The notes: generated by a model from the sequence alone, not told the origin. Positions 14,424-32,579 are shown, numbered from the stretch's first letter. The stretch is DNA of 64,000 bases from an uncultured Verrucomicrobiae bacterium (GCA_963764165.1 CAVXRD010000001.1:160001-224000), one strand, 5' to 3'. Program-made: numbers and translations.

Positions 14424-14754
14424 AAATATTCGTGTGGAATATCACGGTCAATCGCATCTAATCGCCCTTGCGTGCGATTTTTTGCTGGCAGTCAACAAAT
14501 TGTTTTGATAGAAAAGCAAGCCACGCCGGGAAACGACGCAGGAACGGGTACTTCTTTGGCGCGATGAAAGTGATCTGATGCAATTTCGAAACGAGCATCT
14601 TGGGGACGAAAAAGTGAAAGGCCGCAAGCTGTGACGGGGCGGAGCTTTGCCGAATTTTTTCCTTGGCGCCACGGGCCAGGAATTACTTCGTCCGTTTGGC
14701 CCAAGCCAAATCGCGCTCCAGCGTCAACAACGTGCAAGTGTTGTGCAGTTTAAG

Positions 14755-15015
14755 CTAACCTATTCGGATTTGCCGCTCGTATTCTTCATGAGGCCCGATC
14801 CAAAACCATTTTGCCGCGCCACCTTCTACGATGGCAAGGGCTCGATAATTGTCTGTAACGCGCGCAGACCAGAATCCTCCAACTTTTTTAAAATGAAGCG
14901 AAGGATGCTGCGGGTTTTGAAGCCACAACCTGAAGGCCCTTCGCGCCGCACGTTGGATTTCTGGCGGCAGTTGCGCGAATCGGTTACGAAAGCTTTTTGT
15001 GGTCGAGGAACGCAT
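14755..15015 (-). CDS. RelE/ParE-like type II toxin
   Basis: 86 aa MRSSTTKSFRNRFAQLP...NPQHPSLHFKKV..WSARVTDNYRA..WFWIGPHEEYE has the typical RelE/ParE-superfamily pattern; overlaps the upstream small acidic ORF. Confidence 0.8.
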   Translation of the reverse strand: MRSSTTKSFRNRFAQLPPEIQRAARRAFRLWLQNPQHPSLHFKKVGGFWSARVTDNYRALAIVEGGAAKWFWIGPHEEYERQIRIG

Positions 15016-15214
15016 CAAGCGGTGCCTCCGACTCGCCCGGCTCCTCTTTCTGAAGACGCTCGTAAAACTCGCGCAGCCTGCCAGACCCCGCATCGTGCTC
15101 GATTTGGCGATCCCATTCGTCCGCATGGCGCTCGCGCAGATGCCGAACGAGTTCGAAAAACTGCTCGCGCGGCAACCCTTCGATTTGCCTCTCTATTTCC
15201 TGCAACGTCGTCAC
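14984..15214 (-). CDS. Putative antitoxin
   Basis: 76 aa acidic ORF (EIERQIEGLPREQF..DEWDRQIEHDAGSGRL) directly upstream of and overlapping the toxin; GTG start. Confidence 0.7.
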   Translation of the reverse strand: MTTLQEIERQIEGLPREQFFELVRHLRERHADEWDRQIEHDAGSGRLREFYERLQKEEPGESEAPLDAFLDHKKLS

Positions 15215-15255
15215 ACATACAGATTATCTTAACCAAGCTTGGTCATCAAGCCCAA

Positions 15256-15360
15256 GCTTCAACGGAGCCGCGCTCGCTTGAGCGCGGAATGTATTGGTTT
15301 TCACTCGTTTTAACATGCAACGAGCCAGCTTCAACGGGACCGCCTTCGACGGACGATTTG
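15256..15360 (-). ncRNA. Mini-CRISPR / crRNA-like regulatory RNA (degenerate repeat - 36 nt spacer - near-consensus repeat)
   Basis: 15256-15291 is the reverse complement of the array repeat with 3 mismatches, two of them compensatory in the stem. Spacer 15292-15327. 15328-15360 is a degenerate repeat keeping the CCGTTGAAGC 3' end and a short hairpin. Confidence 0.85.
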
Positions 15361-15370
15361 TTGGAGACGA

Positions 15371-15399
15371 TTGACAGTTCAAGAATTATTGCTTAACAT
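15371..15399 (+). promoter_or_regulatory. Sigma70-like promoter of the cas operon
   Basis: TTGACA (15371-15376), 17 bp spacing, TAACAT (15394-15399), ~80 bp upstream of the cas7 ATG. Confidence 0.7.
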
Positions 15400-15406
15400 G
15401 CAACTA

Positions 15407-15435
15407 GACATAACACGAATATCTTAAATTGTCAA
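15407..15435 (-). promoter_or_regulatory. Overlapping opposite-strand promoter for the mini-CRISPR and TA genes
   Basis: Minus strand TTGACA (15435-15430), 17 bp spacing, TG-n-TATGTC (15412-15407); the -10 box is imperfect. Confidence 0.5.
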
Positions 15436-15479: not shown

Positions 15480-16691
15480 ATGAATGAAGAACCAAAACCA
15501 AAAGTCCTCAGTCTGGACCTCTTAAAATCAGCCGTGAGCGGAAGTGCCGCCGCATTTCGTTCCCGCACCCGTCTACAACCTGCTGGGGGTGAAGGAGACA
15601 AAGTATTTCCGCCAACTTATGCCGGAGCGGTCTACGCCAAGGAGGAGCGGCAAATCAACGGCGCAAAGGTTCCATGCGTGCTGCTTGATTCTGTCCAAGC
15701 GCAAGCGAACCGCTTGGAAGAGGCGCTGCAACGGGCATTGGATGCGGGGACGCTCAAGAACATCCCGGTGTTGAATGTGGATTTTACCGGCCTTGGTCTC
15801 TTGGATGAAATTGGACGAGTGAGCACCCTTGAAGCGCCACATCGAATCGCTGATGCGATCCTTCGTGACAGCCTTTATGAGGGGCAGCCGTTTCGGAAGA
15901 GCACACTCGGGAAGTCATTAGATCAAGCTAGCCTGCAAAACGCTACTCCGCTTTATAAACTCTGCCCGACGGCGTTGATTTTCGGCATATGGGATTCGAC
16001 AGGTCCAAAAGGTGGACTCGGCGCGAAATTTCAGCGGGCTCTCGTATCGGAAATCATCGGCGTGAATGCCGAGATCGGTGTAAAAACAAGTAGCCGAATT
16101 GATCCGCTTGGCATGCGCGCGGCGGCAATGGTGGTCAAGAAGCCAGACGGCAGCTACGAACTTGCGAGCGACAAGGCAAAGGATGCTGTTTCACCGTCAG
16201 GAGTAAACCACGGCAACATTCCACCCGACATCACTAAGCCAGGAGGGGCCGGTGGAGCAACCTTGGACTACGCCGAACAAACGGTTGTCCTGTCCCTGCC
16301 CGCGCTGCGTAAGTTGCGTTTTCCTGTAGATGGTACAACAATCCCCGAGCGGGACGCGGCGGGGCGGACCGTACTTGCAGCATTGGCTCTGACGGCGGCC
16401 ACGCTGGCGGCGGAGAGCGGATTCGATCTCCGTTCCCGATGTCTGCTCTGGCCGACTGAGGCGATGAAGTGGGAATTGCTGGAGACGCCAGGGAAGACTC
16501 CCACCGAGTTCACCGTCACAGCAAAAGAAGCTATCAAGCTTTTGGAGGAAGCGGTTGTGGCGGCGGAAAAGCTCGGCTTGGTATGGCAAAAAGAGCCGGT
16601 GAAGTTAATTCCCTCTCCGAATCTGGTTGCCCTGCTCAAGCGGTCGCAGGACATTTCTGCCAAGTCGCCAGCGGGCGCATCGGCAGAATAA
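15480..16691 (+). CDS. csb1: Type I-G Cas7 (Csb1)
   Basis: LQPAGGEGDKVFPPTY, VLLDSVQAQANRLE, EAPHRIADA, PTALIFGIWDS and HGNIPP motifs of Csb1/Cas7g. Confidence 0.93.
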   Translation: MNEEPKPKVLSLDLLKSAVSGSAAAFRSRTRLQPAGGEGDKVFPPTYAGAVYAKEERQINGAKVPCVLLDSVQAQANRLEEALQRALDAGTLKNIPVLNVDFTGLGLLDEIGRVSTLEAPHRIADAILRDSLYEGQPFRKSTLGKSLDQASLQNATPLYKLCPTALIFGIWDSTGPKGGLGAKFQRALVSEIIGVNAEIGVKTSSRIDPLGMRAAAMVVKKPDGSYELASDKAKDAVSPSGVNHGNIPPDITKPGGAGGATLDYAEQTVVLSLPALRKLRFPVDGTTIPERDAAGRTVLAALALTAATLAAESGFDLRSRCLLWPTEAMKWELLETPGKTPTEFTVTAKEAIKLLEEAVVAAEKLGLVWQKEPVKLIPSPNLVALLKRSQDISAKSPAGASAE

Positions 16692-21415: not shown

Positions 21416-22341
21416 TGACTTCATCCAACGAATTAACCCTCCCGGCATTGCAAGGTTCGAGCTTGCTCGGATTCTTGGCCTCACTGGGTGCTTTCCGCAC
21501 GATCGCCATGCTGCCGGAAGCGAGCGATGTCCGGATGCGATGGGTTGCCGGAGGAGGCTCGTATTGCCCCGTGCTGCGGTTGCCCTCGCCAGCAACGCCC
21601 GAGGTGATCGTCGAAAAACTGCATGCCGCATTGCGCGGTCTCGCTGGCCACTACGTCATCACCGTGGACAAGGACTTGAAGATTCCTCGCGGCGTCTTTC
21701 GCAAACTCGCCGCCAATGCAGCCGAAGACTTTCTAACCCACACCGACCCGATGGCCGCGAGCATGGTCGCGGCATTTGGCTGCGACGCAGTGGGAAACGA
21801 AGACGGCACAATCGAAGACACCGCGTTTCGGACGATGAGTGGCGCAGGCCATCAACACTTCCTGGAATTCATGAACGTGTTGGCGAAGGAAACGACGGTG
21901 GAGCAACTGCGTGAAGCGCTCTTCGGCCCGTGGCGCTACCGAGACTCTAGCCCTACCATGCGGTGGGATACGGAGGATGACCGCCGCTACGCCCTGCGAT
22001 GGGATGAGCCATCGAAAGACCCCGTCCGCACCGTGCGCGGGGCAAACCTCTTAGCCATCGCCGCGCTACCTTTTTTTCCGGTTGTCCCCACTTCCAGCAG
22101 CACGGTGGCAACTACTGGCTTCAACGGTCGAGGAAGCCGTGATACTTTCGTCACATGGCCAGTCTGGACGGGCTGGCTAGCGCTGGATGCTGTTCGCTCG
22201 CTCTTAGGGTTGAAAGAACTTCAGGAGCCGAACGAAACTTCTATAAAGTCTCTTGAAATGTATGGCGTAGTTGCAACCTATCGAAGCCAACGAATTACTC
22301 TTGGAAAATATAGGAATTTTACCCCGGCGACCTCCATGTGA
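21412..22341 (+). CDS. Type I-G short large subunit (Cas8g/Csb3-like)
   Basis: 309 aa, translationally coupled to cas3; N-terminal LLGFLASLG resembles Cas8g N-termini; position fits. Confidence 0.7.
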   Translation: MMTSSNELTLPALQGSSLLGFLASLGAFRTIAMLPEASDVRMRWVAGGGSYCPVLRLPSPATPEVIVEKLHAALRGLAGHYVITVDKDLKIPRGVFRKLAANAAEDFLTHTDPMAASMVAAFGCDAVGNEDGTIEDTAFRTMSGAGHQHFLEFMNVLAKETTVEQLREALFGPWRYRDSSPTMRWDTEDDRRYALRWDEPSKDPVRTVRGANLLAIAALPFFPVVPTSSSTVATTGFNGRGSRDTFVTWPVWTGWLALDAVRSLLGLKELQEPNETSIKSLEMYGVVATYRSQRITLGKYRNFTPATSM

Positions 22342-22435
22342 ACGCTCATTCGGTACTCAACTACAACCGATCAAAAACATTAATGTCCAAGACCCATCAG
22401 CTTAGTCCGAAAATCGTTTAACCAACCCATGATTT

Positions 22436-22525
22436 ATGAAACCCAATCTCGACAAAATTGATGATGCCGTGCTGGCGTTGCTTCGCTTGAGAAGCTTCGC
22501 CGAGGGCAACGTAAGCAAAAGGTAG
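22436..22525 (+). pseudogene. Fragment resembling the N-terminus of a DUF6429-family protein
   Basis: MKPNLDKIDDAVLALLRL then an early stop; family recognised from memory only. Confidence 0.4.
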
Positions 22526-23181
22526 TATGCCGCTCGAACCATTTGATCTCATTTGCCCGGAAATCGCCCGCAATGAACAGGCGGCTTGTGTCGTCGCCGC
22601 TGGGACGTCCGGTGAGCCGTCCGGCGAAAGTCTGCCTGGCGCTGAACCGGACTCCTCGGCGAGGCGTCCCTGCTTCTCGGCGAAAACCAACATGAATTAT
22701 CGGAATCTGCGGGAGGGGGCTCCGTCGCGGCGTTTTCATCCCGGAAACGCCGGGTCGGGGGACCCGGCCTGCATTTCGGAATCGAGCGCCCCGTTGCGCC
22801 TTCGCGTCAAAAACCCCTTTTCGCAATATTTCCCCGAAAATCGCGCCGAAAACACTCTGGTAGGTTTTCTGTCCAGCCTCAGCCGTGGCAAAATGCGTTC
22901 ATGAATGGAACTCACCTCATAAATAGGGATGGGGCGCGGGGCGAGAGATTTGCCCGAACGACAAGGCAGCCCGCAACGCGGACACCGCATATTTGTGCTG
23001 GCTCGAGGAGGGAGAATATCCACCGCGTCTTCGACCGATTGGCAACGCGGTCATCCCGGCAAAGAGCCGCCACCCACAGGGCCGCCACAGACCAGGCCCT
23101 CCGGCGTCGCTGCTCCTCAGTTGCAGGTCCGTTTGCGTTTTCAGCCGGATGAATCGTTGCACCCTATTGCACCTACCGATT

Positions 23182-25458
23182 ATGAACGAGCCTGATGCCT
23201 CCAAAACAGACGCGCTTTCCGGCGAAAACCAGCACGAATCATCCAAATATGCAGGCCGGGTGCCCTCACCCGGCGGGCCGGATGCCCTATCTTGCGAAAA
23301 CCAACGCTCGCTAACACCGCCGGCTTCCACTGATCGCGAGCGATTGGGCTATTCTACGAGTGATGCGGGCGGACGCTTGGGCGAGGTTCCCCTACCTTCA
23401 AAAGATCGCGAACGTTTGCCGGATTCTACAAGTGAAGCAAAGCCGGTAAAAATCGTGCTGCGGGTCGAGGCGGTTGAATCGCGGCTGGCCAAGGCCACGC
23501 CACCGCCGGTTGAACCTTCGCCAATTCACACGCCGGATGCCCTGCCCTCCCCGGCCCGGCCGGAAGCGGAGCCGCAGCCAATTCCGGCGCGGATGCTCAA
23601 TGAATTCGTGTATTGCCAGCGCCTTTTCTATTACGAATTCGTCGAGGGGGTGTTCGTCGAAAGCGCGGATACAGTGCGCGGGGCGGCCATTCACCAGCGC
23701 GTCGATTCCGGCAATGGGGCGCTGCCCAAAGCCAAACGCAAGGCGCAAGCCGACAAGGCGAAGGATGGCGAAGAACCCCCGGCCAATGCCGCTGGCTCCG
23801 CGCCACAGGAAGCGGAGGCGCAGAGCGCGGACTTGTCCGCCGCAGCCTTGGCAAAGGCGGAACCTGAAACCATTCATTCGCGCTCGGTGCAAATGGGTTC
23901 AGAACGGCTGGGAGTTGTCGCGAAGATGGACCTCGTTGAGTCCAAAACAGGGAAGGACGATCTTTTCACCGCCTTGGAAGTCTGCCCCGTTGACTACAAA
24001 GCGGGCGCGCCCAAAGAAGGAGAAGAAGCCAATGAATTGTGGGACACCGACAAGATTCAGCTCGGATTGCAGGCGCTCATTCTGCGAGACAACGGCTATG
24101 TTTGCTCCGAGGGCATCATCTATTACCGCGCCACCAAGCAGCGCGTCCGGCTTCCCATCACGGCGGAACTCGAAAATTGGATTCTTCAACAGATTGCCGA
24201 AGCCCGCCGGGTTGCCGTTGGGCCGATTCCGCAGCCGCTCGTCCATTCGCCGAAATGCGCGCGATGTTCGCTCGCCCCGGTCTGCCTCCCGGACGAAACT
24301 CGGATGCTTTCGGAATCGGCGCTCGTCCCGGGTCTCCTGAGCGGTGAGTTTGTCAAAGGGTCGAACGGCGATGCCGCGAATGCAGAATCGCCGCGCCGCC
24401 TGATGGCCGCCCGCGACGACACCCGGCCCCTGTATCTCAACAGCCAGGGATTTCGCGTCGGGTGCAAGGATGAAGTGTTGCAGGTCAAAGAAAAGGACCG
24501 CCTCGTCGAGGAAGTGAGAATGCGCGACCTGTCCCACGTCGCTCTATTTGGAAACATCCAAATTTCTACGCAAGCCATTCAATCGCTGTGCGAGCAGGAA
24601 ATCCCGGTCACCTACTTTTCCATGGGCGGCTGGTTTTATGGCATCACGCGCGGCCACTCGTTGAAGAATGTCTTCCTGCGGATGGAGCAATTCCGCGTGG
24701 CGAAGGATCCGGCGGCGTGCCTCGCCCTGGCCCGGCAATTTGTGCATGGAAAAATCCGCAATCATCGCACGCTGCTCATGCGCAATCATTTGGAACCTCC
24801 CGAGCCTATCATCCTCAAGCTCAAAAGGGCCGCAGAGGACGCGCTGGTTGCCGAGTCCCTTGAGCAGCTTCTCGGCATCGAGGGAGCGGCCGCGAGCCAG
24901 TATTTCCAACAATTCAGCGGCATGGTCAAGGTTGAGGATGATTTGCCTGGATTCGAAACGACGCCCAAGGAAAAGCAGCTCGCGTTTAGTTTTAACTTCA
25001 GCAATCGCAACCGGCGTCCACCCGCCGACCCTGTCAACGCCATGCTTTCGCTGGCCTACAGCATGTTGAGCAAGGATTGCACGCTCGCGGCGCTCGCGGT
25101 TGGATTCGATCCATATATCGGCTTTTACCATCAGCCGCGATTCGGACGTCCCGCCTTGGGATTGGATTTGATGGAGGAAATGCGGCCGCTGGTGGCGGAA
25201 TCCACGGTGTTGAGCTGCATCAACAACCGAGTCATCACCGAGAAGGATTTTGTGCGCGCGGGCCAAGCCGTGAATCTTTCCGCGCCCGGGCGCAAGCGCT
25301 TTTTCCAGATGTATGAGCAGCGCATGAGTTCCCTGATCACGCATCCGCTGTTCGATTACAAGGTGAGCTACCGCCGGGCGCTCGAATTGCAAGCGCGACT
25401 GCTGGCAAAAGTGCTCACTGGAGAAATCAAGGAATACATTCCATTATTGACGAGGTAA
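23182..25458 (+). CDS. cas1: Cas4-Cas1 fusion (start uncertain)
   Basis: Cas4: ARMLNEFVYCQRLFY, KMDLVE, PVDYK, KCARCSLAPVCLP. Cas1: LLGIEGAAA, RNRRPPADPVNAMLSLAY, GFYHQ, LDLMEE. Confidence 0.93.
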   Translation: MNEPDASKTDALSGENQHESSKYAGRVPSPGGPDALSCENQRSLTPPASTDRERLGYSTSDAGGRLGEVPLPSKDRERLPDSTSEAKPVKIVLRVEAVESRLAKATPPPVEPSPIHTPDALPSPARPEAEPQPIPARMLNEFVYCQRLFYYEFVEGVFVESADTVRGAAIHQRVDSGNGALPKAKRKAQADKAKDGEEPPANAAGSAPQEAEAQSADLSAAALAKAEPETIHSRSVQMGSERLGVVAKMDLVESKTGKDDLFTALEVCPVDYKAGAPKEGEEANELWDTDKIQLGLQALILRDNGYVCSEGIIYYRATKQRVRLPITAELENWILQQIAEARRVAVGPIPQPLVHSPKCARCSLAPVCLPDETRMLSESALVPGLLSGEFVKGSNGDAANAESPRRLMAARDDTRPLYLNSQGFRVGCKDEVLQVKEKDRLVEEVRMRDLSHVALFGNIQISTQAIQSLCEQEIPVTYFSMGGWFYGITRGHSLKNVFLRMEQFRVAKDPAACLALARQFVHGKIRNHRTLLMRNHLEPPEPIILKLKRAAEDALVAESLEQLLGIEGAAASQYFQQFSGMVKVEDDLPGFETTPKEKQLAFSFNFSNRNRRPPADPVNAMLSLAYSMLSKDCTLAALAVGFDPYIGFYHQPRFGRPALGLDLMEEMRPLVAESTVLSCINNRVITEKDFVRAGQAVNLSAPGRKRFFQMYEQRMSSLITHPLFDYKVSYRRALELQARLLAKVLTGEIKEYIPLLTR

Positions 25459-25956: not shown

Positions 25957-28900
25957 CATTCCACGCTCACGCGAGCGTGGCTCCGTTGAAGCCACGCAAG
26001 AAGGACCCAAGCCGTTATCGTTAAAGGCCATTCCACGCTCACGCGAGCGTGGCTCCGTTGAAGCTTATCGCGCAAATTCGCAAGAATCGTCTTGACGCTG
26101 CATTCCACGCTCACGCGAGCGTGGCTCCGTTGAAGCTACCGAATTGATTTGAAACAGGATTCGGCACACGCCCATTCCACGCTCACGCGAGCGTGGCTCC
26201 GTTGAAGCAATCCGCTTGACTTTCCTGTGGCTTTTTTCGACGAACATTCCACGCTCACGCGAGCGTGGCTCCGTTGAAGCGAGTTCGGCGACACGCTCCG
26301 CAAGGTTCCCAACGGTGACATTCCACGCTCACGCGAGCGTGGCTCCGTTGAAGCTCGTAATTCGGCACAAACACCCCCTGCCTTGATCCCATTCCACGCT
26401 CACGCGAGCGTGGCTCCGTTGAAGCCGGACGAAGGGCTATAGCGAGACGGAAATTCTCAACATTCCACGCTCACGCGAGCGTGGCTCCGTTGAAGCCCAA
26501 CTGGCAGTGGGTGAGCCATCATTATTTTTGGGCATTCCACGCTCACGCGAGCGTGGCTCCGTTGAAGCTTCATTGCATCAATTGTTTTGTTGACTCCCCG
26601 GAATCATTCCACGCTCACGCGAGCGTGGCTCCGTTGAAGCACCTCAAGCCATGTGTGCTTGCGCGTGACCGTGCAACATTCCACGCTCACGCGAGCGTGG
26701 CTCCGTTGAAGCTCGGCTGGAAATTTGGAGTAACTGTAAAGCTCCCCGGCATTCCACGCTCACGCGAGCGTGGCTCCGTTGAAGCGGGACTGGCAATGGC
26801 AATGCCCGGGCTGCAAGACACGCATTCCACGCTCACGCGAGCGTGGCTCCGTTGAAGCTGCCAGGTTATTTGAAAAATACCGTTCCTCTGATTGCATTCC
26901 ACGCTCACGCGAGCGTGGCTCCGTTGAAGCGATTTGCTGTTGTTCGAGATAGACCAGGCGCGGGCGCCATTCCACGCTCACGCGAGCGTGGCTCCGTTGA
27001 AGCCATCACCATTTATAGCGGGGGCGCGGGTTACAGCACATTCCACGCTCACGCGAGCGTGGCTCCGTTGAAGCGCATCAAGGATTTGACGATCCGTCGA
27101 ATGGAGGGCGCATTCCACGCTCACGCGAGCGTGGCTCCGTTGAAGCAATTTAATCGCGCAGCGGACAAGCACGACCGACGCGGCCATTCCACGCTCACGC
27201 GAGCGTGGCTCCGTTGAAGCCAGGATTCACAAAATATGAACCCACCTCGCAAATTCCATTCCACGCTCACGCGAGCGTGGCTCCGTTGAAGCCGTTGCTC
27301 CAAGCGGCGGGGCAGGCTCTGGTGGAGGTCCATTCCACGCTCACGCGAGCGTGGCTCCGTTGAAGCCCGCTGGGAGTTGAGTTTCAGCAATACAAGCCGG
27401 AACATTCCACGCTCACGCGAGCGTGGCTCCGTTGAAGCTTCGTCATGGAGTTTTTGCAGCGTTTTTTGCGCGGGCATTCCACGCTCACGCGAGCGTGGCT
27501 CCGTTGAAGCCTACGGCGGAAAGAGCGGCAACAAAAAGAAACGCCGCATTCCACGCTCACGCGAGCGTGGCTCCGTTGAAGCAGGATTCCGGCGCATTGA
27601 TTCATTGGGCCAATCGGCTCATTCCACGCTCACGCGAGCGTGGCTCCGTTGAAGCTCAGCACGAGCGCGCACCGCGCCGATTGCTCCTCCGCATTCCACG
27701 CTCACGCGAGCGTGGCTCCGTTGAAGCCGCAATTTTCGACCGGTCAAAAACCACGCGGCGGTGCATTCCACGCTCACGCGAGCGTGGCTCCGTTGAAGCC
27801 CTCCAAAGTAGGGGAATGGGGATTTGAGAGTGTCACATTCCACGCTCACGCGAGCGTGGCTCCGTTGAAGCAGCCCCAGCGACGATTTTTTTGTACTCGG
27901 TCTGCAACCATTCCACGCTCACGCGAGCGTGGCTCCGTTGAAGCTGCATCCGCAATGACCTATCTGCCGCGCATGGCTTGTCATTCCACGCTCACGCGAG
28001 CGTGGCTCCGTTGAAGCCCAATGTTGCCAGTTCCTGAATTCTGAATTGCGCCCCATTCCACGCTCACGCGAGCGTGGCTCCGTTGAAGCTAGGAAATTGG
28101 CTAACCATTCATCGTGCCCCGGTGAATCATTCCACGCTCACGCGAGCGTGGCTCCGTTGAAGCCGGCGCGTCGAAGGGCGGAATTGACGGATTCGAGAAG
28201 CATTCCACGCTCACGCGAGCGTGGCTCCGTTGAAGCTTGTCTGCGTGGCTTGCTCATACTTACCTATGGGCTTCATTCCACGCTCACGCGAGCGTGGCTC
28301 CGTTGAAGCTTGAGTGGTGCAGCCTCGCGGAAAGCGAGGGGGCAATCATTCCACGCTCACGCGAGCGTGGCTCCGTTGAAGCCGCTAGTGGCGGATTTCA
28401 TGGCGATGACATTGAGCGTCCATTCCACGCTCACGCGAGCGTGGCTCCGTTGAAGCACATAATCGGGGAAGGATTTCATTCGGAAAGAAGGTCCATTCCA
28501 CGCTCACGCGAGCGTGGCTCCGTTGAAGCTGATATTGTGTCATTTGAGTAATTACCTTCCAATTTCATTCCACGCTCACGCGAGCGTGGCTCCGTTGAAG
28601 CAACAACAAGCGGAAAAGGGCAAGATTTCGCGCATTACATTCCACGCTCACGCGAGCGTGGCTCCGTTGAAGCGCTTCGAGATCGCGCGCGTTGGCGATG
28701 CCCTTCAATCATTCCACGCTCACGCGAGCGTGGCTCCGTTGAAGCCACGTCGTCTGGCTCCAACAATGCGCCCTCCATTCGACATTCCACGCTCACGCGA
28801 GCGTGGCTCCGTTGAAGCTTCAATAGCTTCAATTGTGGGAACGAGGCTAGATTCCATTCCACGCTCACGCGAGCGTGGCTCCGTTGAAGCGCGAAGAACT

Positions 28901-31900
28901 TAAGAATCTCTTGGCTGGAAAACGCTCCATTCCACGCTCACGCGAGCGTGGCTCCGTTGAAGCCTCCAAGGAAAGCAGTCACTCATTGGTGTTGCCCGTC
29001 ATTCCACGCTCACGCGAGCGTGGCTCCGTTGAAGCCTGTACGTGGGGCAGCGCACGCACGCGAACCCGTACCATTCCACGCTCACGCGAGCGTGGCTCCG
29101 TTGAAGCTGATCGCGTGATTATTGCGTCAACAATCATTTTTTGCATTCCACGCTCACGCGAGCGTGGCTCCGTTGAAGCGAGACTACCAGCTCCGTCCAA
29201 TGCACTGATGGCACCCATTCCACGCTCACGCGAGCGTGGCTCCGTTGAAGCAAAAAGGACGGCGAAATTTGGTATCTCAAAAACTCAGCATTCCACGCTC
29301 ACGCGAGCGTGGCTCCGTTGAAGCGACGCTCGCGTGATTCTCACCAATTGGGGGACGTGCGCATTCCACGCTCACGCGAGCGTGGCTCCGTTGAAGCGTC
29401 ATCGACGTAACAAATACTTTGTTCTGCACGTCCATTCCACGCTCACGCGAGCGTGGCTCCGTTGAAGCATTTCCTCTCGACTCGCCATCGGTTCATGGTT
29501 TGGAACATTCCACGCTCACGCGAGCGTGGCTCCGTTGAAGCTGCTCAGTTGGCGGCCGAATGCGGCATGACGATGACCATTCCACGCTCACGCGAGCGTG
29601 GCTCCGTTGAAGCATTGTACCGTGGTAAACGTCTGGTTTCTGCATCTTACATTCCACGCTCACGCGAGCGTGGCTCCGTTGAAGCTCTAATTTTCTTGGG
29701 AGGAACACAAATTCCCTTCGTCATTCCACGCTCACGCGAGCGTGGCTCCGTTGAAGCATGTTGGATTACGCAAAGATATTCGTGAAGATATTCATTCCAC
29801 GCTCACGCGAGCGTGGCTCCGTTGAAGCCTCCTGCGCTTTAGCCATTGCAATGAACTTGCTGGCCCATTCCACGCTCACGCGAGCGTGGCTCCGTTGAAG
29901 CGTCCGGGTCAATCCGATGCGGGACGATGGCGAGCGCATTCCACGCTCACGCGAGCGTGGCTCCGTTGAAGCAAAAAGTCGAGGGAGAACCTAAGTTTAT
30001 AATGCCCACATTCCACGCTCACGCGAGCGTGGCTCCGTTGAAGCCGAATGAGTCAAGAGACATTTTTTAACCCTTCGTAAACATTCCACGCTCACGCGAG
30101 CGTGGCTCCGTTGAAGCGACAGACAATTTCACGACGACGGGCAGCAATTCGACATTCCACGCTCACGCGAGCGTGGCTCCGTTGAAGCTTGGCCCAGGAG
30201 CGAAAGCGAAAGAATCCCCCCCCCCATTCCACGCTCACGCGAGCGTGGCTCCGTTGAAGCCATTGATGCGCCGGAATTGGTCATGGGTTTCAGCCTCATT
30301 CCACGCTCACGCGAGCGTGGCTCCGTTGAAGCGAGCAGCGCGGGCTTCGACCCGCATCCGGGAATCACTCATTCCACGCTCACGCGAGCGTGGCTCCGTT
30401 GAAGCATATCGTGTTGACAGCGAATCGGTCGCTCACGCCGTGCATTCCACGCTCACGCGAGCGTGGCTCCGTTGAAGCATCGTTTTCTCAGCCTCGGCGA
30501 GCTTCGCGTTGGTGCATTCCACGCTCACGCGAGCGTGGCTCCGTTGAAGCATTTCCGGCGAGATCAAGCGCATAGTTACCAAGCCATCATTCCACGCTCA
30601 CGCGAGCGTGGCTCCGTTGAAGCCTGATTTTCTGTGCCTACTCCCCTCCCGCGCTGCATCATTCCACGCTCACGCGAGCGTGGCTCCGTTGAAGCCCGGA
30701 TTTCTCGGCGTGCTGAAAGGTGATGCTGAAACATTCCACGCTCACGCGAGCGTGGCTCCGTTGAAGCCGTAAGAATGGAAAGAGTCAAGAAGTGAATCAA
30801 CGCCCATTCCACGCTCACGCGAGCGTGGCTCCGTTGAAGCGCGCGGCGCAGCCCCTCTCCAAGGGATGTTCCATCCACATTCCACGCTCACGCGAGCGTG
30901 GCTCCGTTGAAGCCATCACCATTTATAGCGGGGGCGCGGGTTACAGCACATTCCACGCTCACGCGAGCGTGGCTCCGTTGAAGCATTGCGATGACGTTGA
31001 GTGTCTGCAAATTCTCCGCTCATTCCACGCTCACGCGAGCGTGGCTCCGTTGAAGCGTCCCGCACGAAGTAGTGATGGGCGGCGCGCGCGCTCATTCCAC
31101 GCTCACGCGAGCGTGGCTCCGTTGAAGCTTCATGGCCGCTCCTTGAAGTCCCTTTTCGCCCGCCCATTCCACGCTCACGCGAGCGTGGCTCCGTTGAAGC
31201 CGCGCTGGCAGGATTGCTAACGGGAGAAACAAGCGCCATTCCACGCTCACGCGAGCGTGGCTCCGTTGAAGCGATGTATTGATGGATTTTGAAGGCCAGA
31301 TGAGTCTGGCATTCCACGCTCACGCGAGCGTGGCTCCGTTGAAGCGCAGGCCCTGTCACAACAAATCCTCCGACATGGGACCATTCCACGCTCACGCGAG
31401 CGTGGCTCCGTTGAAGCGCATGTTTGTTGAGCGTGGCTGGATATTCCATTCCGACATTCCACGCTCACGCGAGCGTGGCTCCGTTGAAGCTCTTTTGTTT
31501 TTCTCCGGCTTCATGCCTTTGATGGACATTCCACGCTCACGCGAGCGTGGCTCCGTTGAAGCCTCGTTGCATTGCTCTTCACCGTTCTCATATCGCTCAT
31601 TCCACGCTCACGCGAGCGTGGCTCCGTTGAAGCCCCATTGCGAGGTTGTGCTGTTGTAAATCAGGTGTAACATTCCACGCTCACGCGAGCGTGGCTCCGT
31701 TGAAGCGTTTAACATTATTTGAAGGGTCAAAATACCCCTATAATCATTCCACGCTCACGCGAGCGTGGCTCCGTTGAAGCCACGCATCTGGCGACGTGGC
31801 GTGAAAGCTCAAGTGGCATTCCACGCTCACGCGAGCGTGGCTCCGTTGAAGCTGCCGAATTACGAGAATAATCCATTCCTATCGGCGGCACATTCCACGC

Positions 31901-32579
31901 TCACGCGAGCGTGGCTCCGTTGAAGCCATGTGAACACCTAGCGCATGGATTGTTTCCAGGGCCATTCCACGCTCACGCGAGCGTGGCTCCGTTGAAGCAA
32001 CATAGTCAACAATCCCATCTGGAGATCGTGAGGCCATTCCACGCTCACGCGAGCGTGGCTCCGTTGAAGCCGGCTTGGGGTTGGCTGGTTTGCCGTTGCT
32101 ACGACAGCATTCCACGCTCACGCGAGCGTGGCTCCGTTGAAGCAATTTCTGGCACTGGCGGGAAATTGGTCAGCCAACGGCATTCCACGCTCACGCGAGC
32201 GTGGCTCCGTTGAAGCAATAGCGGACTTGGTAACATTGGGAAAACTCGGTATGCATTCCACGCTCACGCGAGCGTGGCTCCGTTGAAGCACCATTCATCT
32301 TAAATATATAAACTTTTTAGTATAAACATTCCACGCTCACGCGAGCGTGGCTCCGTTGAAGCATACAGGATTGTCATTAGGCCAATAAAAAGCCCAATCA
32401 TTCCACGCTCACGCGAGCGTGGCTCCGTTGAAGCTAAGTTTCGGAGGGAAATTAATCAGCGAGGGCCTTGACATTCCACGCTCACGCGAGCGTGGCTCCG
32501 TTGAAGCTAAGCATTTTATTACTTATTTGTGCTAGTAGGCACTCATTCCACGCTCACGCGAGCGTGGCTCCGTTGAAGC
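25957..32579 (+). CRISPR. Type I-G CRISPR array, 92 repeats / 91 spacers (manual count)
   Basis: 36 bp repeat CATTCCACGCTCACGCGAGCGTGGCTCCGTTGAAGC (stem CCACGCTC/GAGCGTGG), spacers ~35-38 bp. Confidence 0.99.

Follow-up and report, generated by a model that had tools for sequence, protein, structure and literature searches.

A type II toxin-antitoxin pair behind a putative CreR-type mini-array at a type I-G CRISPR-Cas locus of an uncultured Verrucomicrobiae bacterium

We analyzed a stretch of 64,000 nucleotides (the window) from an uncultured Verrucomicrobiae bacterium (GCA_963764165.1 CAVXRD010000001.1:160001-224000), the genome of which comprises 7.0 Mb in 5 contigs. The window carries a type I-G clustered regularly interspaced short palindromic repeat (CRISPR)-Cas system, whose plus-strand operon contains, in this order, cas7g/csb1, csb2, cas3g, a gene of the Cas3-extension family, cas4g/cas1g, and cas2 (Table 1). 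Divergently from cas7g, the minus strand carries in succession a degenerate repeat, a pseudo-spacer, a well-kept repeat, a gap of 41 bp, and two open reading frames (ORFs) for an antitoxin and a toxin. A sequence-only reading of the window had placed an antitoxin and a RelE/ParE-like toxin gene 41 bp past a mini-array on the same strand, in agreement with the ORFs and the gap delineated here. It had also proposed that the toxin-antitoxin (TA) pair is held under repression by Cascade. The analyses reported below lead us to favor, with a probability of roughly 0.55, a different reading, in which the TA pair is linked cargo lying behind a type I-G CreR-type mini-array and is transcribed mainly from a promoter of its own.

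Table 1. Features of the TA/mini-array block, of the type I-G locus, and of related cassettes in other loci (positions in the window unless a locus is named)
Feature	Position	Strand	Basis or description
Leftover of cas3 upstream DNA plus cas3 5' end; left border of the TA/mini-array block	14520..14753	+	DNA alignment with G007 and L010; ORF clusters with Cas3 N-termini; DEAD match for L029
Toxin gene, 86 aa	ATG 15015 to 14755	-	RelE/ParE superfamily (Pfam ParE_like); Pfam, predicted structure, Foldseek
Antitoxin gene, 76 aa, GTG start	15214 to 14984	-	ORF, conserved partner family
Gap of 41 bp	15215-15255		Between mini-array repeat end (15256) and antitoxin GTG
Candidate TA promoter, leaderless type	15221..15249	-	-35 TTGATG 15249-15244, 17-nt spacer, -10 TAATCT 15226-15221, 6 nt to GTG 15214
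Perfect 12-bp palindrome ACCAAGCTTGGT	15231..15242		Inside TA promoter spacer; read from sequence
Second AAGCTTGG	15259-15252		Read from sequence
Mini-array repeat (R), 3' of pseudo-spacer, ending in GTTGAAGC	15256..15291	-	Repeat search, against main-array repeat CATTCCACGCTCACGCGAGCGTGGCTCCGTTGAAGC
Pseudo-spacer, 36 nt	15292..15327	-	
Degenerate upstream repeat (psi-R), keeping 3' CCCGTTGAAGC, source of the 8-nt 5' handle	15328..15363	-	Repeat search
Predicted cas7g promoter	15371..15399	+	TTGACA 15371-76 / 17 / TAACAT 15394-99; scan, 10/12
Protospacer (15410 down to 15375) and 5'-TTA protospacer-adjacent motif (15413-15411)	15375..15413	-	16/18 first nt match
Candidate mini-array transcript promoter	15407..15435	-	TTGACA (15435-15430) / 17 / TGtTATGTC (TATGTC 15412-15407); read from sequence, uncalled by scan
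cas7g/csb1	15480..16691	+	First gene of type I-G operon; TIGR02570, PF09617
csb2	After cas7g	+	TIGR02165
cas3g	After csb2	+	TIGR02621
Cas3-extension family gene, 336 aa	After cas3g	+	NF049934
cas4g/cas1g	After Cas3-extension gene	+	NF049935
Main CRISPR array	~25957 to 32290		36-nt repeat CATTCCACGCTCACGCGAGCGTGGCTCCGTTGAAGC
PIN/mini-array/UPF0175 cassettes	L015:2870-3792, L018:780-1678, L020:597-1543, L021:2973-3887, L023:3008-3928, L027:2927-3855; also L119	-	

The toxin and antitoxin ORFs share a 32-nt overlap, the antitoxin gene being the first of the two. The toxin matched the Pfam family ParE_like (PF24732) with 30.6 bits for a cut-off of 24.4 (E = 3.5e-7), and its AlphaFold model, for which 25 homologues were aligned, had a predicted local distance difference test score (pLDDT) of 94.3. 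Foldseek matched this model to YoeB (2a6r_C) and RelE (3bpq_B) at an E value of 5.5e-5, with template modeling (TM) scores of 0.69 to 0.71, and also to YafQ, the E values for the three proteins spanning 5.5e-5 to 2e-4. The toxin has, as judged from this model, the RelE/ParE fold expected of a type II TA module, although a search by sequence did not find a relative in the PDB. The antitoxin could be assigned to no family of Pfam or NCBIfam, sequence and profile searches of the PDB gave no credible relative, and no DNA-binding domain was recognizable in the Pfam and NCBIfam searches. The small overlapping antitoxin gene is nevertheless conserved as a partner of the toxin. Among 34 loci, comprising 29 loci from 33 other genomes with matches among 400 sampled genomes of the phylum, 3 paralogues from the same genome, locus L012, and the window itself, a homologous small gene preceded the toxin homologue in 31, the other 3 being failures of ORF picking (27 antitoxin and 25 toxin homologues were aligned).

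Modeling of the toxin-antitoxin complex gave a score of 0.77, compared to 0.01 for the best control, with residues 27 to 70 of the antitoxin contacting the toxin. Of 157 solved complexes, 116 attained the mark set for this score, as did 2 of 215 mismatched pairs; solved complexes of RelE/ParE relatives exist, and likeness to them may contribute to the pass. The runs had at least 88% of the contacts in common, with a partner pLDDT of at least 81. The complex model supports binding of the toxin by the antitoxin. Gene arrangement, family conservation, and modeling indicate that the ORFs form a genuine type II TA pair, composed of a toxin of the RelE/ParE fold and a small helical antitoxin predicted to wrap the toxin. 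The genome contains four copies of the toxin family, of which the CRISPR-linked one is the only uninterrupted toxin, with both ORFs of its pair intact. The toxins of the L002 (G000:C1:328330-328560), L003 (G000:C3:759665-759880), and L004 (G000:C2:2879923-2880162) copies are each interrupted early by a single in-frame stop (TGA, TAA, and TAG), the codon affected differing among them, and their antitoxin genes look intact.

The mini-array has the organization expected of a cas-regulating element. It is a repeat/pseudo-spacer/repeat unit derived from the CRISPR repeat of its own locus and located beside the effector genes, and the hairpin of its repeat R is preserved through compensatory changes in the predicted fold. 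In type I-G systems, the protospacer-adjacent motif (PAM) is TTN and Csb2 leaves an 8-nt 5' handle by cutting 4 nt past the hairpin (bioRxiv 10.1101/2022.08.08.503147), a rule that fits a cut between CTCC and GTTGAAGC in the mini-array. Nucleotides 1 to 18 of the pseudo-spacer matched, in the whole window, themselves and a single other site (minus strand, 15410-15393), where positions 3 and 6 are mismatched and pairing stops past nucleotide 18. The number of such 18-nt matches expected by chance was 0.03, and two matches were obtained in 0 of 100 shuffles. The matching site covers the cas7 promoter, which was the only strong promoter call between 14000 and 15700, and overlaps its -10 element. 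The pseudo-spacer thus provides a PAM-proximal partial match to a cas promoter, flanked by the PAM of the subtype.

We surveyed 82 loci, consisting of 80 related cas7g loci (of 535 confirmed), the window, and the locus of genome G007, by a motif-pair scan and inspection. Minus-strand mini-arrays were present upstream of cas7g in approximately 15 of them. The best nonself match had a TTN PAM for 13 of the 13 tested mini-arrays (the window and 12 related I-G loci), and shuffled spacers reached 15/20 in 0 to 4 of 200 trials per locus. Because all tested I-G mini-arrays have a TTN-flanked best target, we assign the mini-array of the window, from its sequence, as a CreR-type autoregulator of the type I-G system. 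With respect to the guide itself, the seed GCUCGUU is complementary to positions 19 to 25 of the pseudo-spacer (AACGAGU), so that the guide can self-fold in the predicted RNA structure. A metagenomic match to the first 20 nt of the pseudo-spacer was found in one contig, which is otherwise dissimilar to the window, and was set aside as a chance match.

The evidence for a promoter dedicated to the TA pair comes from its family. For 31 loci, the 60 nt ahead of the conserved antitoxin start were scored for a match to TTGACA-(16-18)-TATAAT with the end of the -10 hexamer located 4 to 12 nt before the start codon (L100, L102, and L108 were dropped, the wrong frame having been picked). Scores of at least 8/12 were obtained for 21 of the 31 regions, compared to 5.4% of random windows from the same loci and 13.9% of shuffles; the corresponding values for scores of at least 9/12 were 13 of 31, 0.6%, and 2.8%. 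TTG was present at the -35 element in 24 of the 31 regions, and the distance from the -10 element to the start codon was exactly 6 nt in 16 of them, the modal layout, to which the window belongs. Since the architecture of the window copy is homologous to the modal layout of the antitoxin family, the TA pair most likely brings its own promoter and would be transcribed as a leaderless or near-leaderless mRNA. In the 29 toxin-homologue loci of the phylum, nothing related to CRISPR was noticed in the stretches read, the flanks of +/-1.5 kb being unscreened for cas genes and CRISPR repeats. The ACCAAGCTTGGT palindrome located in the spacer of the candidate promoter forms, in the predicted fold, a hairpin without a U tract, and possibly acts as an operator or a weak hairpin.

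The relatives of the TA pair that lie near cas7g also fit with linked cargo. Positions 14520-14740 of the window aligned with DNA of G007 and L010 that precedes and begins a 5' remnant of cas3, which abuts cas7g in those loci. In the window, a block of approximately 700 bp containing the toxin, the antitoxin, the mini-array, and the promoters replaces the rest of the remnant. Relatives with 84 to 89% Cas7g identity, which belong to Chthoniobacter, Limisphaerales, and other Verrucomicrobiota metagenome-assembled genomes, had different inserts or none between the cas3 remnant and cas7. In the 31 genomes searched from the family of the bacterium, with G000 counted among them, only 2 other I-G cas7g genes were found, one without an insert and the other at a contig end. 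The closest relative of the window antitoxin was that of L012, its sister with 99/94 support in a tree of 31 rows of short proteins. A distance of 2.2 kb, with a Fic gene and a cas3 remnant in between, separates the L012 pair from a cas7g of 87% identity, and a mini-array was not detected there. In L024, a homologue of the antitoxin and a stub of the toxin lie approximately 40 bp from cas7g, with no mini-array found by eye or by scan. Because L012 and L024 keep TA genes near cas7g with the mini-array undetected, the TA lineage appears to stay near I-G loci without needing the mini-array.

Additional possible traces of rearrangement were seen at this site. A short 5' fragment of cas3, which includes the PTGLGKT helicase motif, lies directly upstream of cas7g in L008 (G007), L010, L012, L013, and L022, and the window also has a full cas3g further downstream; the retained fragment resembles a rearrangement scar that was conserved, or else a promoter region that was kept. 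In L012, the first part of the cas3 remnant is duplicated in inverted orientation, along with the DNA upstream of it (L012:1900-2000, minus strand; L012:3581-3650, plus strand). The two copies flank the Fic/DOC gene, and the TA homologue adjoins one of them, suggesting an inversion or rearrangement at the hot spot.

Other TA-type genes occupy the slot behind I-G mini-arrays. Six I-G loci (L015, L018, L020, L021, L023, and L027; Cas7g 68 to 84% identical) contain, divergently from cas7g, a gene for a DUF3368 PIN protein (PF11848), a two-unit mini-array, and a UPF0175 gene (PF03683). The UPF0175 gene, directly after the mini-array, is preceded by TTGnnn, 16 to 17 nt, a -10 hexamer, and 6 to 12 nt to the start codon, and the pseudo-spacers match the cas7-PIN intergenic region beside TTN. 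Thus, a mini-array followed by an antitoxin gene with a predicted promoter of its own recurs with two unrelated TA families, the toxin rather than the antitoxin being on the Cascade-facing side in the PIN version. We compared 16 loci of PIN homologues obtained from 400 sampled genomes of the phylum. The two best, L119 and L120, were divergent from cas7g; the mini-array of L119 is identical in sequence to that of L027 and therefore not independent, and L120 had only a doubtful repeat pair. Four of the 16, all distant, had neither cas7g nor a mini-array and showed the usual order of UPF0175 before PIN, and for 10 of the 16 neither UPF0175 nor cas7g was found with the queries used. The PIN-first order was seen only beside cas7g.

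The slot directly after the mini-array was otherwise occupied by an XRE-HTH gene (L048, L071, and perhaps L063) or by a small unknown gene (L036 and L069), and contained nothing in L011, L014, L034, and L076. ORFs upstream of cas7 were compared by clustering all ORFs; the Pfam scan covered 135 of 526 of them (loci L010 to L031) plus 34 selected ORFs, and we make no statistical claim of enrichment. I-G mini-arrays of a second class (L036, L048, L069, L071, and L076) have a TTN-flanked target on the plus strand, 20 to 80 nt away and ahead of a small additional gene located before cas7g. The target of L076 is flanked by TTA, and its additional gene matched Sigma70_r4_2 below the Pfam cut-off (23.6 versus 25.7 bits). 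Genes for helix-turn-helix (HTH) regulators with WYL/WCX domains were observed upstream of cas7g in several more distant I-G loci (L025, L030, L031, L053, and others).

Several observations weigh against transcription of the TA pair mainly from its own promoter as a mere linked cargo. The TA promoter of the window scores only 7/12 and was missed by the generic promoter scan. Terminator prediction found none between the mini-array and the TA genes, and the hairpin directly after the repeat lacks a U tract; for these two reasons, co-transcription of the TA pair with the mini-array to some degree, by read-through, is likely. The sole intact toxin copy of the genome is the CRISPR-linked one, hinting at selection acting on it. 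Of the approximately 15 I-G loci with a mini-array, 7 have TA-type genes following it, and six of the seven carry the PIN toxin gene between the Cascade-targeted region and the mini-array, a recurrence which suggests that the TA/mini-array neighborhood is not accidental.

These observations bear on the arrangement put forward by the sequence-only reading, in which the mini-array and the TA pair form one transcript initiated at the divergent promoter 15435-15407 and repressed by Cascade together with the cas operon, so that loss or inhibition of Cascade would induce the TA pair as a safeguard resembling CreTA or CrePA with a protein toxin. We consider this possible, although unlikely. The sequence, coordinates, and overlap of the minus-strand promoter were as proposed: the PAM TTA and the protospacer, seed included, overlap its -10 element, and a TG at 15415-15414 gives it the extended -10 form. 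The promoter call was not confirmed, since TATGTC matches only 3/6 positions of a -10 hexamer, the final T being absent, and the scan did not report it. Silencing of the cas operon and of the guide plus TA transcript by one binding event agrees with the geometry, because a single Cascade footprint at 15375-15413 would cover the cas7 promoter from -35 to +1 plus the -10 element of the candidate divergent promoter, and with the lack of a predicted terminator before the TA genes; it also has a precedent in H. hispanica, in which a single CreA site represses two divergent promoters (bioRxiv 10.1101/2023.03.10.532045). Prediction of cargo TA modules behind I-D mini-arrays, enrichment of TA modules near mini-arrays (bioRxiv 10.1101/2023.03.03.530964), and the CrePA precedent for a protein toxin controlled by CreA (bioRxiv 10.1101/2024.01.05.574328; PMC12737573) point in the same direction, as do the PIN cassettes, whose order is reversed only next to cas7g.

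Against this arrangement stands the family-typical promoter in the gap. The sequence-only reading had itself held that an independent TA promoter would argue against Cascade control, and such a promoter is present as far as sequence comparison goes, despite the low score of the window copy. No TTN-flanked match of the pseudo-spacer was found at the TA promoter candidate, the sole TTN-flanked match being that at 15393-15410; another match, of 14/20, lies inside the toxin gene and is flanked by GCA. Release of the toxin in the manner of CreTA was contradicted by the protein nature of the antitoxin, by this untargeted TA promoter, and by gene order: the antitoxin gene is first, and read-through or derepression would therefore raise antitoxin and toxin together. 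The idea that a leadered mRNA favors toxin translation through GGAGG, 14 nt before the toxin ATG, was dropped, as Shine-Dalgarno-like motifs preceded the toxin start in only 5 of the 34 family loci and were poorly spaced. As to synteny in other I-G loci, named earlier as a check, protein TA genes recur beside mini-arrays in the PIN/UPF0175 cassettes, and the sister TA pair of L012 has no detected mini-array. Cascade control of the TA pair is thus possible only through read-through and by itself would not free the toxin.

The TA pair may alternatively be a chance neighbor, which landed in a hot spot of a defense island without any selected relation to the CRISPR-Cas system and may be decaying. 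The widely varying content of the inserts before cas7g among close relatives, the degraded copy in L024, and the presence of four family copies in the genome are what such a history would leave, but both ORFs of the window are intact compared to the stops in the three other toxin copies, the sister TA pair in L012 is also linked to a I-G system, and TA-type genes recur behind I-G mini-arrays, so that we find this explanation rather improbable. Least probable of all is a main function of the small protein behind the mini-array as a DNA-binding regulator of the divergent cas/mini-array promoter region, with the toxin secondary, since the palindrome in the gap and the UPF0175 (six loci), XRE-HTH, and small unknown genes that directly follow I-G mini-arrays would suit such a role but the antitoxin lacks a recognizable DNA-binding domain, has residues 27 to 70 occupied by toxin binding in the model, and belongs to a family found in the 29 phylum loci described above.

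Under the linked-cargo reading, the promoter in the 41-bp gap would start the TA mRNA at or beside the start codon of the antitoxin gene. After cleavage by Csb2, the RNA of the mini-array would guide Cascade to the TTA-flanked site with a partial match on the cas7 promoter, where binding would act as a brake on the cas operon and probably also on the divergent transcript of the mini-array itself. Cascade would influence the TA pair only by read-through from the divergent promoter, both proteins rising. The likeliest role of the TA pair would be that of a linked addiction or stabilizing module (or of an abortive-infection module) in a hot spot located before I-G effector operons. The sequence shows every element with its geometry, as well as the fold of the toxin and the layout of the promoter across the family; promoter activity, Cascade binding, and the role of the TA pair are inferred.

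A broader and tentative proposal, which we regard as doubtful, is that the CreR-like mini-arrays of Verrucomicrobiota I-G systems are built into protein TA operons, forming type II safeguards supervised by Cascade. The window would then represent a second version, with a RelE/ParE TA pair in the antitoxin slot and read-through repressible by Cascade, and if Cascade were inhibited (by anti-CRISPRs, for instance), the balance between toxin and antitoxin would change and growth would stop. This proposal rests chiefly on the PIN cassettes located outside the window, which are better candidates than the window for a real Cascade-TA circuit. If Cascade did control the TA pair, ordinary type II TA modules would join the RNA toxins (CreT) and the single KilA-N protein (CreP) under CRISPR supervision, and such supervision would reach the little-studied type I-G, which would offer a simple test bed for the self-guarding of CRISPR against loss and anti-CRISPRs. 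The window mainly documents a I-G CreR-type autoregulator, a TA family with a promoter-at-start-codon architecture, and a cargo hot spot before cas7g.

Elsewhere in the type I-G locus, a canonical cas8g/csx17 gene was not recognized among the scanned ORFs of the window; the profile TIGR04113 gave zero matches, as it likewise did in all 14 control genomes. No confident gene was found at 22341-23800, in the stretch that separates the Cas3-extension gene from the Cas4/Cas1 domain (the latter begins at approximately residue 278 of an ORF of 821 aa). This interval contains imperfect direct repeats at 22667-22718, 23209-23260, and 23281-23303.

The closest parallel to the mini-array is provided by the CreR mini-CRISPRs of Liu et al., which act through a cas-regulating RNA logic, creA-like elements being mentioned for I-U (bioRxiv 10.1101/2023.03.10.532045), the older name of I-G (bioRxiv 10.1101/2022.08.08.503147). 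As in CreR, the window has a degenerate two-repeat mini-array beside the effector operon and a PAM-proximal 16/18 match to the cas promoter with the correct PAM, and autorepression by the mini-array is expected by analogy. It differs in belonging to type I-G and in having a Csb2-type handle; the likeness concerns the mini-array and not the TA pair.

Control of cargo TA modules by mini-arrays was predicted by Shmakov et al. in 2023, mainly for I-D systems, together with an enrichment of TA modules between mini-arrays and cas genes in I-B, I-E, I-F1, and I-D, with gene-shuffling hot spots for the I-D cargo, and with the proposal of an addictive or anti-anti-CRISPR circuit (bioRxiv 10.1101/2023.03.03.530964). 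The main text of that report does not name I-G or I-U. Like the I-D cargo of protein TA and regulator genes, the TA pair of the window comes directly downstream of the mini-array, within a hot spot of variable content next to the effector genes, and the variability of the inserts in front of cas7g likewise resembles the I-D gene-shuffling hot spots. The predicted I-D targets lie in the promoters of the cargo genes themselves, whereas the only target in the window is the shared cas7/mini-array promoter region, the TA promoter being separate.

CreTA and CrePA were demonstrated experimentally. In these systems, a CRISPR RNA (crRNA)-like RNA alone serves as the antitoxin, Cascade targets the promoter of the toxin, and the toxins are small RNAs or a KilA-N protein, the latter in the CrePA module of Shu et al., which places a protein toxin under CreA control (bioRxiv 10.1101/2024.01.05.574328; PMC12737573). 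Linkage of a toxin gene to a type I system and to a crRNA-like RNA is common to these modules and to the window, and theirs is meant to punish the loss or inhibition of Cascade. In contrast, the window has a RelE/ParE toxin, an antitoxin-first operon, a protein antitoxin in the place of an antitoxin RNA, and no target at the promoter of the toxin. A limited literature search found no paper on a type II TA module wired to a I-G mini-array.

Chromosomal type II modules of the RelBE/ParDE kind stabilize neighboring DNA. The TA pair of the window resembles them in its small overlapping genes, in the RelE/ParE fold of its toxin, and in its several genome copies, some of them decayed; it differs from them in its unnamed antitoxin family, its leaderless-type promoter, and its position right behind a CRISPR mini-array. 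Cargo TA modules behind mini-arrays and CrePA having already been published, the TA pair of the window is a further case of a known type.

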